IMG/VR virus record: IMGVR_UViG_3300006139_000013 | Span: 5,354 to 69,353 of that record | Reading direction: 5' to 3' (one strand) | Origin: a virus | Lineage: Duplodnaviria; Caudoviricetes | DNA: 64,000 nt | Shown: piece by piece, positions 4,796-54,511 of the stretch | Position numbering within the stretch: position 1 is the stretch's first letter | How the letters are laid out: each line of letters begins with the position of its first letter | Translations under genes and position numbers: made by a program | Notes under the pieces: generated by a model | Databases searched by the model: none | What the model saw: only the letters and a program-made list of their open reading frames with translations | Told to the model about the DNA's origin: nothing

Positions 4796-5983
4796 TCACA
4801 ATTTAATCGCATATTCAATAGCTTTGCCTTTGCCTTTTTCAAAGACAAGAAAAGTGGCTCCAGCATTTGAGGTTTTATGAATAGACAAAGAATAATCATC
4901 AACACCAATAATACTTGGAACATTAATTACTTCCTGATTAATACCAACAGTCTCACTACGAGAATGATGTTTATGACCAGCAATCAAAAAGTCAAGCTGA
5001 ACACGATATATCTGCGAAAAATCTTTAATAGCCTGTTCCATACTTTTTACTTCACCATGAATACCAAGTAACTTATACCCAAGAATATCAGCATAAATGT
5101 ATCCTGTTGGATTCTTAGTAAATGTAAAATTAGGGTTGTTCGCAAGCCTTGTAGCAATAATTGATTCTACCACAAGACTCATATTTTCTTTGGTAAACGT
5201 CCCTTTAGGCTGACCAAGCATACGTAGTTCTGTATGATTTCCGTTAGTGGTTTGAAACTCGACCTCAACGTACTTACTTAATTCATTTAGCCAATTTGAA
5301 ATAAATTCCGCATATCGAACAGTTCCTTCTACTACGCCATACCGAAGCTGCATCAACTGTTTAACTCGTAATAAACCATCCTCAAAATCACCCAATGAAA
5401 ATACATGAATTCTTGAAAATCCTTCTTTTCTAACAATAGAAATAGTTTGATCTAACAAACTCCACATTCTATTTTCAAATATTTCAGGACTATAAGAATT
5501 AATTACCTCATTATTGAGGCCACGAATTTCAAATTCAGTACCGTAATGTTCATCACCAAACAGCAACACCCCTTCTCTGTCAGACAATTCTGTATGAATT
5601 GGTTCAGGAATCACTAAAGGTTCCAACTGTGCAACTGCTTGACAAATATGTTCTACAATTAATTCATCACGAGCATTCTCACGCAGCCAACGATTTAATT
5701 CTAACTTTTCAGTTTGAACTTTATAGCGTTCTTTTCGTAATTCACGCATCTGAACAGTTGCTTCAGTAGGAGTGACAGCAGAACTTTCCAGCGGATTTTT
5801 AATCCAACCAGCTTCTAAATACTCATAAAACAATTTTGCTCCCTTACGAATTGTATCACGGTGTTCATCATCACCTGTATATTCAGCACGTAAATCCGCT
5901 ATATCCTGCCATTCAATAGCAGGATCAGTCAAACGTTGAGAGAGCAAATCAAACTGTCGGCTTAAAAACTCTGTTTGTTCCAA
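4796..5983 (-). CDS. calcineurin-like metallophosphoesterase (SPbeta YonJ-like)
   Basis: GDEHYG, LGDFEDG, GNH, GIHG, GHKH motifs. Confidence 0.8.
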   Translation of the reverse strand: MEQTEFLSRQFDLLSQRLTDPAIEWQDIADLRAEYTGDDEHRDTIRKGAKLFYEYLEAGWIKNPLESSAVTPTEATVQMRELRKERYKVQTEKLELNRWLRENARDELIVEHICQAVAQLEPLVIPEPIHTELSDREGVLLFGDEHYGTEFEIRGLNNEVINSYSPEIFENRMWSLLDQTISIVRKEGFSRIHVFSLGDFEDGLLRVKQLMQLRYGVVEGTVRYAEFISNWLNELSKYVEVEFQTTNGNHTELRMLGQPKGTFTKENMSLVVESIIATRLANNPNFTFTKNPTGYIYADILGYKLLGIHGEVKSMEQAIKDFSQIYRVQLDFLIAGHKHHSRSETVGINQEVINVPSIIGVDDYSLSIHKTSNAGATFLVFEKGKGKAIEYAIKL

Positions 5984-34752: not shown

Positions 34753-36096
34753 ATGGGAAAAATAATTAATATTCCAGATGCTCCAAAGCAGCTTATGAAG
34801 ATTCTGTTGGATGCAGGATATGAAGCCTATGTAGTGGGTGGCTGCGTTCGTGATTTTCTGTTGGGACGTGTGCCGCATGATTGGGATATTTGTACGAATG
34901 CACTTCCAGAACAAATGAAGGAGTGTTTTGCTGATTATCATGTAATTAAAACTGGCCTCCAGCATGGCACTCTTACAGTTATGGTGGATCATGTTGGGTA
35001 TGAAATTACAACATATCGCACTGATGGAGAGTACACAGATCATCGGCATCCAGATTCAGTGCAGTTTGTCGGCACACTTCAAGAAGATTTGATGCGCCGT
35101 GATTTTACAATCAATGCAATGGCTGCTGATATTAGTGGAAAAATCCGAGACTTTTATGATGGACAATTTGATTTGGAACATAAGTGGATTCGTTGTGTAG
35201 GCGATCCGAATAAACGGTTCACGGAAGATCCATTGCGTATCCTTCGTGCTATGCGGTTTGAATCAAATCTGGGGTTTGCCATTGAACCTTATACAGAAAT
35301 GGCTATGAGGGATCATCGGTATCTGCTCCAGCATATATCCGCTGAAAGAATCAATTCGGAACTATGTGGTATTTTGATGGGCGATTGCTATTCAACGCTG
35401 GCCTGTTACCCTGATGTGCTGGCAGTGTGTATTCCAGATGTTGAACGGTGTATTGGGTTTAAGCAAAACAATCCTCATCACAATAGAAATGTTTGGAATC
35501 ATATTGTGTACGCTGTTTCGGTTGCACCTAAAGACCTTTATGTTCGGCTGGCATTATTGTATCATGATATTGGAAAGCCGTTGTGTTATACAATAGATAG
35601 TGGCGTAGGACATTTTTATGGTCATGCTGCTATCAGTAGAGACATAGCAGAAAAGTCTTTGCGAGAACTACGATTTGATAATCAGACTGTTAAGCTGGTG
35701 ACACAGCTTGTAGAAGCCCATGACAGGACGATTGAGCCACGTAAGCCAGTGATTCGCCGCTGTATGAATAAGCTGGGGCTGGAGCAATTTCTTCGTTTAT
35801 TGAATGTAAAAGAAGCCGACTATGCCGCACAAGCACAGTTGTATGGTGATAGATTGCAAAAGGTAGAGATTCTTCAGATGGCAAATGAAATTCTGGCAGC
35901 ACAAATACAGCAGGAAGAATGTTTCACCTTGAAAGATTTAGCTATCAATGGTAATGACTTGATTCAGCTTGGATATAAACCCGGAAAGAAAATTGGAACT
36001 GTGTTAAATCAGTTGCTTGAGATGGTGATTGATGATAAAATAGCAAATGACAAAGTTCAGTTGACCTTGTGGGCAATCAATCGGATGGAGGAATAG
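34753..36096 (+). CDS. cca: CCA tRNA nucleotidyltransferase with HD domain
   Basis: VGGCVRDFLLG...DWDI; RRDFTINAM; EDPLRILR; LYHDIGK. Confidence 0.93.
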   Translation: MGKIINIPDAPKQLMKILLDAGYEAYVVGGCVRDFLLGRVPHDWDICTNALPEQMKECFADYHVIKTGLQHGTLTVMVDHVGYEITTYRTDGEYTDHRHPDSVQFVGTLQEDLMRRDFTINAMAADISGKIRDFYDGQFDLEHKWIRCVGDPNKRFTEDPLRILRAMRFESNLGFAIEPYTEMAMRDHRYLLQHISAERINSELCGILMGDCYSTLACYPDVLAVCIPDVERCIGFKQNNPHHNRNVWNHIVYAVSVAPKDLYVRLALLYHDIGKPLCYTIDSGVGHFYGHAAISRDIAEKSLRELRFDNQTVKLVTQLVEAHDRTIEPRKPVIRRCMNKLGLEQFLRLLNVKEADYAAQAQLYGDRLQKVEILQMANEILAAQIQQEECFTLKDLAINGNDLIQLGYKPGKKIGTVLNQLLEMVIDDKIANDKVQLTLWAINRMEE

Positions 36097-45995: not shown

Positions 45996-46087
45996 TGGAG
46001 AATGGTGGAATTGGTAGACACACCGTACTATGGAGCGGCGAAGGTAGCGCAGCCTTCTTGTAGGTTCAAGTCCTACTTCTCCAGCCA
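45996..46087 (+). tRNA. atypical class II tRNA, identity undetermined
   Basis: Acceptor, D, variable, T arms and GCCA intact; anticodon arm CCGT-ACTATGGA-GCGG. Confidence 0.7.
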
Positions 46088-48371: not shown

Positions 48372-48380
48372 AGATTGTGC

Positions 48381-48409
48381 TTGACATTTGTGGTCAAGCA
48401 TGATAGTAT
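48381..48409 (+). promoter_or_regulatory. promoter of mazF-like gene
   Basis: TTGACA-17-TAGTAT with extended TG. Confidence 0.7.
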
Positions 48410-48455
48410 AATAACAGGTTATTCAATAATAGATATAGATAGGGGGGGTGCTGAT

Positions 48456-48809
48456 ATGAGGACTATAAAAAGAGGCGATATTTTCTATGCTGATTTAAGT
48501 CCAGCCATAGGAAGTGAGCAGGGTGGCACAAGGCCAGTTTTGATAGTTCAAAATGATGTAGGAAATTATCATAGTCCAACAGTAATTGTTGCTATTTTAA
48601 CATCCAAATCAAAGAAAAAACTTCCTACTCATATCAGCATTCATTCAGGTGAAGGTAATATTACAATGGATTCTACGGTTTTACTGGAGCAAATACGAAC
48701 GATTGATAAGTTTCGGCTACAAAAATATGTTGGTAGCGTTTCCGATGATACAATGGATCGTGTTGACCGGGCCATGCTGATAAGTCTTGGCCTCAGTAAT
48801 TCGGCATAA
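48456..48809 (+). CDS. mazF: MazF/PemK-family endoribonuclease
   Basis: RGDIFYADL...GSEQGGTRPVLIVQND...PTVIVA...LLEQIRTIDK. Confidence 0.93.
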   Translation: MRTIKRGDIFYADLSPAIGSEQGGTRPVLIVQNDVGNYHSPTVIVAILTSKSKKKLPTHISIHSGEGNITMDSTVLLEQIRTIDKFRLQKYVGSVSDDTMDRVDRAMLISLGLSNSA

Positions 48810-49843: not shown

Positions 49844-49912
49844 ATTCGGGTTTTAAGGGGGCCAACCTCTTAAAACTTACATAAATAACGGTATAATCAA
49901 TAATAATTATAT

Positions 49913-49989
49913 CGCAAAGTAGTTCAATTGGAAGAACGCTCTGGTGATGTGCTGGGGCTATGTTGGTTCGAGTCCAACCTTTGCGAACA
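49913..49989 (+). ncRNA. tRNA-like RNA with non-canonical anticodon arm, no CCA
   Basis: CGCAAAG/CTTTGCG, GTTC/GAAC, GTTGG-TTCGAGT-CCAAC. Confidence 0.7.
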
Positions 49990-50024
49990 TCAAAATTCAA
50001 AAATCAAAAAAGGAGTAATGTAAT

Positions 50025-50672
50025 ATGACTGCTGAAACTATGACCGTACATAAGGCCCTTGCTGAACTGAAGATTCTTGGTGGTCGCATTGAGGGCGCAA
50101 TTCTGAGTGGTGATTTTGTTATCACGAAGAAGAACAACCAAGATACTGTAAAAGGCAAAACGGTAGAGCAGTATAAGGCCAAGGCTACAGAGGCTTTCCA
50201 GAAGGCATCTGATCTGATTCGCCGCCGCAACGCAATTAAGAATGCTGTGGTTGTTTCTAATGCTAAGACTATGGTGAAAATTGGCGACAAGGAGTATACG
50301 GTGGTTGAGGCCATTGAAAAGAAGAATCACGGTATGGACTATTACATTCAGCTTCGTGATATTCTTCGCCAGCAGCTTTCAAAGCAGAAAACCGAACTGG
50401 AGAAGCATAACGCCTCTCTTCAGCAGAAGGCAGAACAATTTGCTGTGGCAATGATGGGCGGCAAAGATGTAAAGGATGTAAAGACCGATAGTGATGAGTA
50501 TGTTGCTTCGATGAATACTTACATCAAGGCAAATACTATGACGCTGCTTGATCCGCTTGGTATCGAAGCAAAGATTGAGGAACTGGATGACATGATTAAC
50601 ACATTCCTGCCCGAAGTGGATGCGGCTCTGTCGGTAAGTAATGCGGTAACTACCATTACTGTCGAATACTAA
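50025..50672 (+). CDS. helical coiled-coil protein, distantly DIP1984/septicolysin-like
   Basis: KALAELK...SNA...TVVEAIEKK...VDAALSVSNAVTTI pattern. Confidence 0.5.
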   Translation: MTAETMTVHKALAELKILGGRIEGAILSGDFVITKKNNQDTVKGKTVEQYKAKATEAFQKASDLIRRRNAIKNAVVVSNAKTMVKIGDKEYTVVEAIEKKNHGMDYYIQLRDILRQQLSKQKTELEKHNASLQQKAEQFAVAMMGGKDVKDVKTDSDEYVASMNTYIKANTMTLLDPLGIEAKIEELDDMINTFLPEVDAALSVSNAVTTITVEY

Positions 50673-50681
50673 AAGCTATCT

Positions 50682-51046
50682 ACTCGCTGCGTAACGAAAA
50701 CTGCAAACCATAACACGCCTGAGTTTAGGTAATGTTCTGAGGTGTAAATTAATAAAAACATTACCGCCTATAAAAAATTACAGTCTCATAAACTGAGAAT
50801 ATACATATCAAAAAAGAATTAATATTATTCAAGTTTCTAATAGTAAATTGGAAATTGTAAATGATGACTGTAAAGTTCAAGGCTGAAAGCTGAAGGTTCA
50901 AACTTCGCAAAGTTCAAAGTTTATGAATCCTTCAAAGCTGAAAGATTAGGCAACAAAGACAAAAGTTTTACAAAATCCTTGGTATATGGTTTTTGGAATT
51001 GTTATGCTTGTCCAGCAGCTAACCACAAGGCTGTTACGTAGCGAGT
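50682..51046 (+). ncRNA. candidate 365-nt structured RNA with heptamer array
   Basis: 14-bp terminal stem, internal hairpins, nine AA(A/G)G(T/C)T(C/G)-like units; no ORF. Confidence 0.7.
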
Positions 51047-51142
51047 CGATATATAGAATGTCTGATAGATACTATCGGGCATTCTGTCCAGAACTTAATA
51101 AAATGAGTTTTGGGTAGAGTGTCCGATGTAAGGAGTGATTAA

Positions 51143-52324: not shown

Positions 52325-54511
52325 ATGAGGGTTTTACTTTTGCTCCGTGGCTCTGCTGGAGTGGGTAAGTCCACTTATATTAAGGAACATGATCTGGAGC
52401 AGTATGCGCTTTCTGCCGACAATATCCGTTTGATGTGCCAATCACCCGTTTTGCAAACAGATGGATCGGTAGCAATTAGTCAGACAAATGAAAAGCTGGT
52501 ATGGAATCTTATGTTCCAGATGCTTGAGGCCAGAATGCAGCGTGGCGAATTTGTGGTGATTGATGCAACCAATTCTAAGACGCAGGACATTAATAGATAT
52601 AAAGATATGGCAAAGACGTATCGGTATCGTATGTACTGCGTTGATATGACAGGAGTACCCATTGACGAATGTAAGCGGCGTAACAAACTCAGACCGCCTT
52701 ACAAACAGGTTCCAGATGAAGTAATCGAAAAGATGTATTCCAGATTTGAGACACAGCAAGTTCCAACTGGCGTGACTGTGATTCAGCCTGACGAACTGGA
52801 TACTATCTGGTATAAACCTGCTAATTTTGATCGCTACAAGCGGATTCATCATATCGGTGATATTCATGGTTGTAATACTGTCCTGCAAGAGTATCTGAAA
52901 GATGGTATGCACGATGATGAACTGTATATTTTCTGCGGCGATTATATTGATCGTGGTATCGAAAATGTTGAAGTTATTAAGTTCCTTTTCAATATCATGG
53001 ATAAGCCGAATGTGATTCTGCTGGAGGGCAATCATGAACGCTGGCTTTGGTATTGGGCGCATGGTGGCACATCTCAGTCTAAAGAATTTGAGAATGTAAC
53101 ACGGCGGCAGCTTGAAGCTGGGGGGTTGGATACTAAGGTTGCTCGAATGTTGTATCGTAAACTTAATCAGTGTGTGTATTATAGGTTTGGTGAAAAGACT
53201 GTGCTTGTTACTCATGCTGGTTTGAGTTTGATTCCTGATAATCTGACTAAGGTTGCATCTGAACAGATGATCCGTGGTGTTGGTCGATATGGCGACTATC
53301 TTGATGTAGCAGCTACTTTCGATCAGACAATGCCTGAAAATACATATCAAATCTTTGGTCATCGTAATACCGAAGATTCTCCCATTGCAATGTCAGATCG
53401 GTGTTTTAATCTGGAGGGAGCGATTGAACAGGGCGGTTGCCTAAGAGCCGTTGTTTTGGATGCAGATGGGTTCCATCCTGTTATGATCCAGAATACCGTA
53501 TTTCGCCAGCGAGAGGAAGTTGCTCCTGTTGGATATACCGCAGAAGAAAAGAGCGTAATGGATGTTGTCGATAAGCTGCGGCAAAATCGCTACATCTATG
53601 AAAAACAGCTTGGTAACATTTCATCCTTTAACTTTACTCGTGATGCTTTTTATGATAAGAAATGGAATGAACAGACTACTAAAGCACGTGGCCTGTTTAT
53701 TGATACCGCTAATGGCATAGTGGTAGCACGTTCTTATCCTAAGTTCTTCAATGTTAATGAGCGTCCTGAAACCAGATTCGGTATGCTCCAGTATAAGTTG
53801 AAGTTCCCTGTAACGGTTTACGTAAAGGAAAATGGATTCCTTGGTATGGTATCTTATAATCCTGAAACGGACGATTTCTTCATTGCAAGCAAGTCAACAA
53901 CAGAGGGTGATTTTGCGGGTTGGTTGCGGGATATGTTCTTTAAGAATGTAAAAAATCCTGATAAACTGAAAGATTATCTGAAGCGCAAGAATGTAACCCT
54001 TGTGTTTGAATGCGTGGATATGGCTAATGATCCGCATATCATTAAGTATGATACTTCTCATCTGTTTTTGTTGGATGTAGTCAAGAATCAGCTTGATTTT
54101 GAAAAGTTGCCATATACTCAAGTTGTTGAACTTGGCAATGAATACGGGTTTGAAGTTAAGACAAGGGCAGTTCAGCTTCAAAATTGGCATGAGTTCCGTG
54201 ATTGGTATAATGATGTACTTGCAGAGGATTATCAGTTCAACGGGCGTATCATTGAAGGCTTTGTAGTAGAAGATAGTGTTGGCTTTATGGTAAAGATTAA
54301 ACTTGACTATTACAAGCTATGGAAACATATGCGTGGCGTTGCACAATCTGTTTTTAGAAGCGGTTACTATCGGCGTATGGGTTCGTTGCTCACACCGCTC
54401 CAAAATCAGTTTTATGGGTTCTGTCAGGAAATTGCAAAGCAAGAAGATCATCCTACTAATATTATTGAACTGCGAGATATTTTTATGTCTCAATATAACC
54501 CAAGCAAATAA
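52325..54511 (+). CDS. polynucleotide kinase / phosphatase / RNA ligase fusion
   Basis: GSAGVGKST; IGDIHG, GDYIDRG, GNHE; KENGFLG and EGFV ligase motifs. Confidence 0.92.
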   Translation: MRVLLLLRGSAGVGKSTYIKEHDLEQYALSADNIRLMCQSPVLQTDGSVAISQTNEKLVWNLMFQMLEARMQRGEFVVIDATNSKTQDINRYKDMAKTYRYRMYCVDMTGVPIDECKRRNKLRPPYKQVPDEVIEKMYSRFETQQVPTGVTVIQPDELDTIWYKPANFDRYKRIHHIGDIHGCNTVLQEYLKDGMHDDELYIFCGDYIDRGIENVEVIKFLFNIMDKPNVILLEGNHERWLWYWAHGGTSQSKEFENVTRRQLEAGGLDTKVARMLYRKLNQCVYYRFGEKTVLVTHAGLSLIPDNLTKVASEQMIRGVGRYGDYLDVAATFDQTMPENTYQIFGHRNTEDSPIAMSDRCFNLEGAIEQGGCLRAVVLDADGFHPVMIQNTVFRQREEVAPVGYTAEEKSVMDVVDKLRQNRYIYEKQLGNISSFNFTRDAFYDKKWNEQTTKARGLFIDTANGIVVARSYPKFFNVNERPETRFGMLQYKLKFPVTVYVKENGFLGMVSYNPETDDFFIASKSTTEGDFAGWLRDMFFKNVKNPDKLKDYLKRKNVTLVFECVDMANDPHIIKYDTSHLFLLDVVKNQLDFEKLPYTQVVELGNEYGFEVKTRAVQLQNWHEFRDWYNDVLAEDYQFNGRIIEGFVVEDSVGFMVKIKLDYYKLWKHMRGVAQSVFRSGYYRRMGSLLTPLQNQFYGFCQEIAKQEDHPTNIIELRDIFMSQYNPSK

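Follow-up and report, generated by a model that had tools for sequence, protein, structure and literature searches.

Some described systems resemble parts of a locus found in a 64,000-nucleotide (nt) stretch of viral DNA (positions 5,354 to 69,353 of the Caudoviricetes record IMGVR_UViG_3300006139_000013; hereafter the window), in which the gene of a 215-amino-acid (aa) protein is followed by a 365-nt structured RNA with a phased array of 7-nt units. The T4 protein gp32 binds cooperatively, with approximately 7 nt per monomer, and the operator of T4 gene 32 consists of a pseudoknot and A/U-rich repeats; both gp32 and ribosomal proteins shut off their own translation. In the TRAP-trp leader and CsrA/CsrB systems, many short, evenly repeated single-stranded motifs serve a multimeric or multi-copy protein, as the array of the window may do. 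RAGATH-27 (RF03100), an orphan family of candidate small RNAs with 86 positions, is said to come from a 2017 survey by Weinberg et al. The large phage RNAs ROOL and GOLLD, which occur near transfer RNAs (tRNAs), are reported to form RNA-only assemblies (PMC12286853).

Gene and RNA were linked in both directions. A pattern search of IMG/VR, built from the 3' half of the RNA only, returned 86 stretches including 46 family members, and a homolog of the gene (33–100% identity) lay upstream of the RNA in each of the 41 hits for which upstream DNA was present. It ended 1–41 nt before the closing stem P1 of the RNA in 40 of the 41, while in locus L134 the gap reads 253 nt. In the other direction, a search with the protein alone gave 19 loci in bacterial genomes; L223 was left out because it holds only residues 1–64, and in all 18 loci holding the 3' end of the gene the 3' domain of the RNA followed directly (E values 1e-47 to 5e-9). 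A profile of the 3' domain also matched the cultured phages My1 (1e-9), T5 (2e-6), VCM (9e-4) and Bcp1 (1e-3). The annotations of Bcp1, My1 and VCM leave a gap of 396–478 nt after the gene. In the T5 record AY692264 (L204, 2477-3274), T5p083 is placed on the strand opposite the conserved 208-aa gene (complement 35306-35932 of AY692264), and the 350-nt RNA behind this gene is unannotated, overlaid only with 'putative promoter' features. A co-conserved RNA downstream of homologs, which the first-pass annotation of the window had proposed to look for, was thus present without exception.

The stretch downstream of the gene is a real structured non-coding RNA. In an alignment of 20 diverse representative relatives (A3), a structure of 53 base pairs was tested against column shuffles and slid partners. 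It was 88.7% paired, compared with 69.1% in the shuffles and at most 41.9% when slid, and its covariation score was 0.562, compared with 0.205 and at most 0.141, respectively. Compensatory changes on both sides were found in 43 of the 53 pairs, and RNAalifold independently recovered P1, stem A, P5 and P6. Since the single sequence folded better than its shuffles on both strands (z -4.8 and -5.9), covariation and not single-sequence folding decides the question. Conserved G.U pairs occurred only on the + strand (on the other they would be C.A mismatches), which assigns the RNA to the strand of the gene. Compensatory changes were already visible in the terminal stem of the close relatives L002 and L005, and at least 13 of 16 pairs of this stem could be formed in 42 of the 46 family members, whose sequences were very different. 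In total, 37 distinct RNAs of 353–460 nt were obtained; the window holds one copy.

The terminal stem had been described from the window as a 14-bp (base pair) helix (50682-95 / 51033-46); it covaries strongly and extends to 19 nt at 89% complementarity. Its 5' strand is followed by the invariant GAAA of GAAAAC (50696-50701). Stems A (82.5% paired, 7/8 pairs compensatory) and B (69% paired, 8/8) interleave and therefore form an H-type pseudoknot, and P2b, which pairs the 5' strand with the loop of hairpin P6, makes a second one. P5 was 100% paired with one of five pairs compensatory, and P6 was 98% paired with three of three. By reading, P5 was found to covary in distant phages (My1 CUCAG/CUGAG, T5 CCUAG/CUAGG, VCM CUUGG/CCGAG), and the T5 RNA shows a 17-bp P1 followed by GAAAGC, a pseudoknot of CCUCG/CGAGG with CAGCGGU/ACCGCUG, and P2b as AUCUUAC/GUAAGAU inside a GGC/GCC hairpin.

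Of three internal helices proposed earlier, GGTAATGTT/AACATTACC is real and covaries. The helix AAACCATA/TATGGTTT is present but weak in comparison (75% paired, one covarying pair) and was dropped, because it crosses the far better supported P2b. The TCTCA/TGAGA stem exists in the window, but lies in the variable insert of P4 and is not conserved; the same ground led to the rejection of a 9-bp pairing between the central motif and 50786-94. This insert varies in length and content, and contains tRNA-like or T-arm pieces in L158, L131 and L134. In L158 (6445-6844) a T-arm, a capped acceptor stem and a D-arm occur in permuted order, and at L130 (8998-9069) ARAGORN calls a whole tRNA-Gln inside the stretch taken as RNA, where the closing stem reaches only 13/16.

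The array occupies the loop between P4 and P5, both ends of which are clamped by core helices. All nine 7-nt units listed by the first-pass annotation are there, but the true array has seven plus five. In the 20 relatives the heptad consensus is AAAGYUY (A 100%, A 99%, A 79%, G 66%, Y 87%, U 93%, Y 85%). The AA at a period of 7 nt is invariant, almost no insertions or deletions occur despite the diversity of the relatives, and the length of the loop is constant, while no conserved pairing within it was predicted by RNAalifold in the same sequences. The alignment therefore supports the prediction of a conserved, single-stranded loop of constant length.

The ribosome-binding site of the partner gene mimics this array, with heptads running into the Shine-Dalgarno (SD) sequence. 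At least two in-phase heptads no more than 45 nt from the start were present in 20 of 27 family genes, but in only 7 of the 133 other genes with an SD sequence at these loci (p 4e-14, which is optimistic because the sequences behind the leader counts are related). The unit AAAGTTT occurred in the leader of 10/27 family genes and 0/133 others, and the leader motif is often UUCAAAGUUUA, which is invariant in the array center. Elsewhere in the window, no runs of at least three in-phase heptads were detected outside the RNA except one chance-level site, and TCAAAGTTTA was not enriched. That the gene carries heptads of the array on its own ribosome-binding site fits a landing pad for the protein with feedback.

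The open reading frame (ORF) of the partner protein was confirmed as first described, and AlphaFold2 predicted a mostly helical protein with a small sheet and long helices (predicted local distance difference test, pLDDT, 87). Its conserved 'head' (residues 1–100 and 191–215) contains two SNAxT motifs, the small beta-sheet and an invariant C-terminal Tyr, while the rest forms a variable acidic helical hairpin. The best solved match to the model was 3kdq, a protein of unknown function (Z 10.0, 151/152 residues aligned; next match Z 7.0), and the Atlas cluster DIP1984/DUF6847 matched with template modeling (TM) scores of 0.54/0.68. The predicted fold is clearly similar to that of DIP1984/DUF6847, the best structural likeness obtained, although the phage protein has an extra helical hairpin of approximately 90 residues.

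Sequence searches of Pfam, NCBIfam and PDB with the protein gave chance-level matches only. DIP1984/DUF6847 (PF20935) was absent among the families shown in an hmmscan of 20 members at E up to 10, and Foldseek returned nothing from PDB at E ≤0.001. The viral matches were all uncharacterized, and the family comprises 2221 clusters at 50% identity. The label 'tail fiber', carried by PHROG 1491 in its name only, is unsupported: there is no tail-fiber Pfam domain, and in T5, My1, VCM and the window the gene lies among tRNA and early-type genes. Two singletons were fused forms, one of them joined to DNA-ligase domains; these are probably gene-calling artifacts.

The only Rfam match of the RNA was RAGATH-27, whose whole model aligned to 50683-50766 (37.3 bits, E 0.0057 in a 1.6-kb search). 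This is below the gathering score of 76.1, and the match was absent from the gathering-level scan. Since the relatives in L125 (97.4 bits) and L008 (91.3 bits) pass the threshold and align end to end with the window RNA, RAGATH-27 is the 5' part of a larger RNA; the window RNA is a diverged RAGATH-27 relative that is not a formal Rfam hit. They share the 5' sequence CGAAAACU..AAAC.AUAA and the same hairpin, which is stem B and the sole helix of the model. That model leaves its first 46 positions unpaired. In the full-length RNA they supply the 5' strands of P1, P2b and stem A, whose partners lie as far as 350 nt away; the model also lacks the protein partner, the heptad loop and both pseudoknots. 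In T5, My1, VCM, Bcp1 and L123, Rfam detected no RAGATH-27, and these RNAs were recognized by the 3'-domain profile and helix reading. The earlier statement that no named family has this layout has to be revised, as RAGATH-27 covers the first 86 nt, though it is an uncharacterized orphan. A search of a literature library found no paper on RAGATH-27, RF03100, the function of DIP1984 or a T5 RNA at this site.

The other systems were alike in parts of their organization. The T4 gene 32 operator and ribosomal-protein feedback share the pseudoknot beside unstructured A/U-rich repeats and a site of similar type at the ribosome-binding site of the regulator's gene. However, T4 gp32 is a single-stranded-DNA-binding protein with an oligonucleotide/oligosaccharide-binding (OB) fold, while the present partner is predicted to be helical and DIP1984-like, and the main array lies on a separate downstream RNA domain. 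TRAP, a beta-sandwich 11-mer, recognizes GAG/UAG triplets 2–3 nt apart, and CsrB presents GGA in hairpin loops, so that motif, spacing and fold all differ. The TRAP-like logic considered earlier was not supported: the model is all-helical apart from a small sheet, and the units are AAR with 4-nt spacers. ROOL, GOLLD and skipping-rope RNAs share the habitat in phage tRNA clusters, but they have no sequence or model match to the RNA, no fixed protein-gene partner and no heptad array. A skipping-rope RNA (RF02924, 58.3 bits, above threshold) was detected in the window itself, within the first tRNA cluster (1754-1844, - strand).

The tRNA-like element upstream of the gene had been described as lacking a valid anticodon or CCA, and this description was accurate. 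Its cloverleaf score is above the Rfam threshold, and ARAGORN reads the anticodon as 'atg'. The anticodon arm, as read from the sequence, has a 7-bp stem and the loop UGAUGUG with G at position 33 instead of U33, and is thus not a canonical 7-nt loop with U33; ACA occupies the CCA position, while CCA is encoded in each of the window's ten other tRNAs. The corresponding loop contains ACG in L002 and L205. As a fixed part of the module, the element did not hold up: it is absent in L005, and ordinary tRNAs are found at other loci. It is one example of the tRNAs that commonly flank the module.

tRNAs were present in 24 of 30 loci. In eight loci, representing seven lineages, a tRNA lies 35–47 nt upstream of the partner gene (37 nt for the element of the window), and a same-strand tRNA follows 3–8 nt after the RNA in 5/37 RNAs and within 100 nt in 21/37. 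These flanking tRNAs suggest that tRNA-processing enzymes define the ends of the messenger RNA (mRNA) and of the RNA; if so, neither a valid anticodon loop nor CCA would be needed in the element at 49913. The commonest tRNA of the loci is tRNA-Gln(UUG), with 25 of 184, and 20 of these 25 have the loop CUUUGAC. In the window, a long-arm tRNA (45996-46087, + strand; Rfam tRNA 37.1 bits) follows directly after a tRNA-Ser, and ARAGORN assigns no anticodon to it ('at').

The best reading of these data, held with slightly more confidence than doubt, is an autoregulated protein–RNA particle embedded in tRNA clusters, for which we infer binding, stoichiometry, autoregulation, processing and function as follows. 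The promoter-like motif at 49884 probably drives the tRNA-like element, the 215-aa gene and the RNA. A compact core, made of P1, the H-type pseudoknot and P5/P6 with the loop-to-5'-strand pseudoknot, would hold both ends of the heptad loop of approximately 100 nt. The conserved head would attach copies of the protein to this loop, each copy occupying one heptad or a few, so that the particle has a fixed size, and surplus protein would shut off its own translation through the heptads at the ribosome-binding site. The flanking tRNAs or tRNA-like elements would probably allow RNase P and RNase Z to cut the 5' end of the mRNA and the 3' end of the RNA. The particle may act in tRNA biology or in defense against tRNA-cutting host nucleases, a role pointed to by the constant home in phage tRNA clusters and by the probable transcription unit shared with a kinase-phosphatase-RNA-ligase gene. 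The idea that the array is a landing pad for the adjacent protein, put forward from the window alone, is favored by the co-conservation, the single-stranded constant loop and the heptads at the ribosome-binding site, but the TRAP-like or type III antitoxin-like logic proposed with it is not.

A more far-reaching version, a new class of phage ribonucleoprotein ranging from T5 to gut phages, is regarded as speculative. In it, about a dozen protomers would sit on the closed heptad loop held by the knotted RNA core, and the particle would control its own synthesis through the mimic at the ribosome-binding site and act on the tRNA pool, for example by capturing or shielding NAA-reading tRNAs or neutralizing tRNA-cutting defense nucleases.

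Several observations weigh against a particle of this kind. The A/U-rich stretch upstream of the SD sequence may simply enhance translation, the heptads could be bound by a host factor, and the leader counts come from related sequences, as stated above. The head is basic in 11/20 members, with an acidic tail hairpin, but it is not basic in the other 9/20; the whole protein is mildly acidic (pI 5.2–6.4), and its DIP1984/DUF6847-like fold is without a known RNA-binding role. The pseudoknotted core is more elaborate than would be required of a simple sponge for a protein. The public RNA libraries consist of contigs; these cover the region, but the ends, strand and level of the transcript cannot be read from them.

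In a rival explanation, the RNA would work without the phage protein, as an ornate self-assembling or catalytic RNA or as a sponge for a host factor (S1, Hfq or the 30S subunit), with the gene merely co-transcribed. The complex, doubly pseudoknotted core recalls ROOL and GOLLD, the range of Gram-positive and Gram-negative hosts suits a universal host target, and the protein is not basic overall. However, co-transcription alone is hard to credit for an adjacency that persists without exception at identities down to 33% in very different phages, and the mimic is found specifically on the partner gene, so this explanation is considered rather unlikely. A purely cis-acting role, as a 3' untranslated region that stabilizes the mRNA or as an end definer in polycistronic tRNA precursors without a trans function, is less probable again. 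It would explain why the RNA always lies directly 3' of the same ORF, often with a tRNA a few nt later or, in VCM and Bcp1, with a terminator after it; but 350–460 nt, two pseudoknots, seven covarying helices and a phased array of 12 units exceed the needs of a stabilizer, and the array is conserved in sequence, not in structure alone.

The heptads could also pair with tRNA anticodon loops, gathering or shielding NAA-reading tRNAs or serving as a decoy for the nucleases that cut them. The unit has the length of an anticodon loop, its 'codon' positions read NAA, and in the rotated consensus YUYAAAG the variant UCAAAG complements six of the seven loop bases of the neighboring tRNA-Gln(UUG) (CUUUGAC), the commonest tRNA of the loci; an RNA-repair gene is present in the window as well. 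Yet any A-rich motif complements a U-rich loop, the counts are inflated by related loci, and several loci have UAA-rich units without a matching tRNA. Mainly because the directly flanking tRNAs are of many kinds, such pairing was judged improbable. Two alternatives raised in the first-pass annotation, type III antitoxin-like logic and a sponge for a nuclease such as MazF (here the MazF of the window), are very improbable. A MazF-family gene does lie 1.9 kb upstream, but none is annotated beside the module in T5, My1, VCM or Bcp1, and the array contains no conserved MazF-type site. The partner is predicted to be a helical bundle without a nuclease family match, not an endoribonuclease fold, and the repeats are 7 nt instead of approximately 36 nt and lie downstream of the gene. 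Finally, the terminal inverted repeats and short direct repeats would also be expected of an element acting as DNA, such as the iterons of a replication origin or a small transposon. Compensatory changes in seven helices including two pseudoknots, G.U pairs that would be C.A mismatches on the opposite strand, a fixed position and orientation relative to the gene, and a single copy in the window make this hardly credible.

The protein was found in 743 of 50,697 phage records (approximately 1.5%), and its carriers include T5-like phages of Escherichia and Salmonella, Bacillus Bastille-like phages, Pseudomonas Otagovirus, and Vibrio and Lactococcus phages; the module therefore occurs in phages of both Gram-positive and Gram-negative hosts. 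At the DNA level, a blastn of phage records with the window gave one weak match only, and a loose pattern search gave mostly chance matches. Judged by the protein, about 1.5% of sequenced phages, among them the classic model T5, thus carry a complex RNA of 350–460 nt with a dedicated protein partner, while public catalogs contain only an 86-nt fragment of it. The phased 7-nt array together with the mimic at the ribosome-binding site lends itself as a clean model of feedback and of protein assembly on an RNA template. The tRNA clusters of phages are now seen as a means of countering tRNA-targeting immunity (PMC10264068). Because of its location in such clusters, the module is a candidate for a missing player in this conflict.

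Table 1. Features of the module and its surroundings in the window.
Feature	Position	Strand	Support
MazF/PemK-family gene, 1.9 kb upstream	48375-48809	+	PF02452, E 7e-35
Phage promoter-like motif AATAAC-N7-TCAATA (perfect copy) with embedded TATAAT (-10 box 49892-97)	49884-49902	+	motif count and promoter scan
Atypical tRNA-like element; canonical acceptor, D and T arms	49913-49986	+	Rfam tRNA 45.6 bits (gathering 29), ARAGORN
Leader heptads AAAATTC AAAAATC AAAAAAG running into Shine-Dalgarno AAGGAG (array mimic)	49992-50015	+	
215-aa partner protein	50025-50672	+	phrog_1491, E 1.7e-52
Whole structured non-coding RNA, 365 nt	50682-51046	+	alignment A3, covariation
P1, closing stem	50682-50696 / 51032-51046	+	99% paired, 13/15 pairs compensatory
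P2b, 5' strand CAUAACA with loop of hairpin P6 (second pseudoknot)	50709-50715 / 51000-51006	+	92% paired, 6/7 compensatory
H-type pseudoknot: stem A 50716-23/50737-44, stem B 50729-36/50757-64, A-rich third loop	50716-50765	+	
P4, 50779-85 / 50866-72, around variable insert 50786-50865	50779-50872	+	~80% paired, 4/6 compensatory
Heptad loop: 7 units 50872-50922 (ending in invariant UUCAAAGUUUAU), ~11-nt linker, 5 units 50934-50969	50872-50969	+	
P5, 50977-81 / 51026-30, enclosing P6, 50995-97 / 51011-13	50977-51030	+	covariation
Downstream hairpin 51055-68 / 51072-85 and third arm copy 51116-28, just before ribosome-binding site of next gene	51055-51128	+	
Three-domain kinase / phosphoesterase / T4-type RNA ligase fusion (tRNA-repair type enzyme)	52325-54511	+	phrog_8238, E 5e-224

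The source virus record (69 kb, approximately 54% complete) is from mouse gut, and the partner protein of the window is 97% identical to a protein in a Flintibacter muris contig. On the + strand, the promoter-like motif is followed by the tRNA-like element, a leader of 37–38 nt, the 215-aa ORF and a 470-nt stretch without conserved coding potential. The motif, previously called an operator, is present, with 25 copies in the window compared with 1.2 expected, and is probably the phage's own promoter consensus. As it contains a TATAAT -10 box, it reads as a phage promoter rather than a demonstrated operator, and the copy at 49884 is the probable start of the transcription unit of the module. Sites of this motif include 4284, 25040, 43122, 48410, 49884 and 54507, and the spacer is usually TATAAT-like. 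The next copy on the + strand after 49884 is that at 54507, and the unit therefore probably reaches through the RNA-ligase gene, placing the kinase-phosphatase-RNA-ligase enzyme in one transcription unit with the module. The MazF/PemK gene has no obvious antitoxin-sized neighbor, and is followed by the gene of a 336-aa protein without a family match.

A terminator scan detected no canonical terminator 3' of the RNA in the window. In VCM and Bcp1 the RNA is succeeded by terminator-like hairpins with U-runs, and in T5 by a promoter. The hairpin downstream of the RNA (51055-51128) is kept in the close subgroup L002, L005, L102 and L157, and its arm motif was not repeated elsewhere in the window. 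The 3' arm of this hairpin could instead pair with the third arm copy, and such alternative pairing is possibly a switch for the downstream gene; in L002, approximately 200 nt are inserted between them.

In RNA library X7, a contig spans 49875-51766, and the depth varies between neighboring contigs, whereas the coverage in X10 and X12 is flat and may come from DNA. A contig of a related phage in X10 joins the window sequence exactly at the end of P1 (51049). Ahead of this junction it carries another variant of the RNA 3' end, a hint that phages exchange the module as a cassette.

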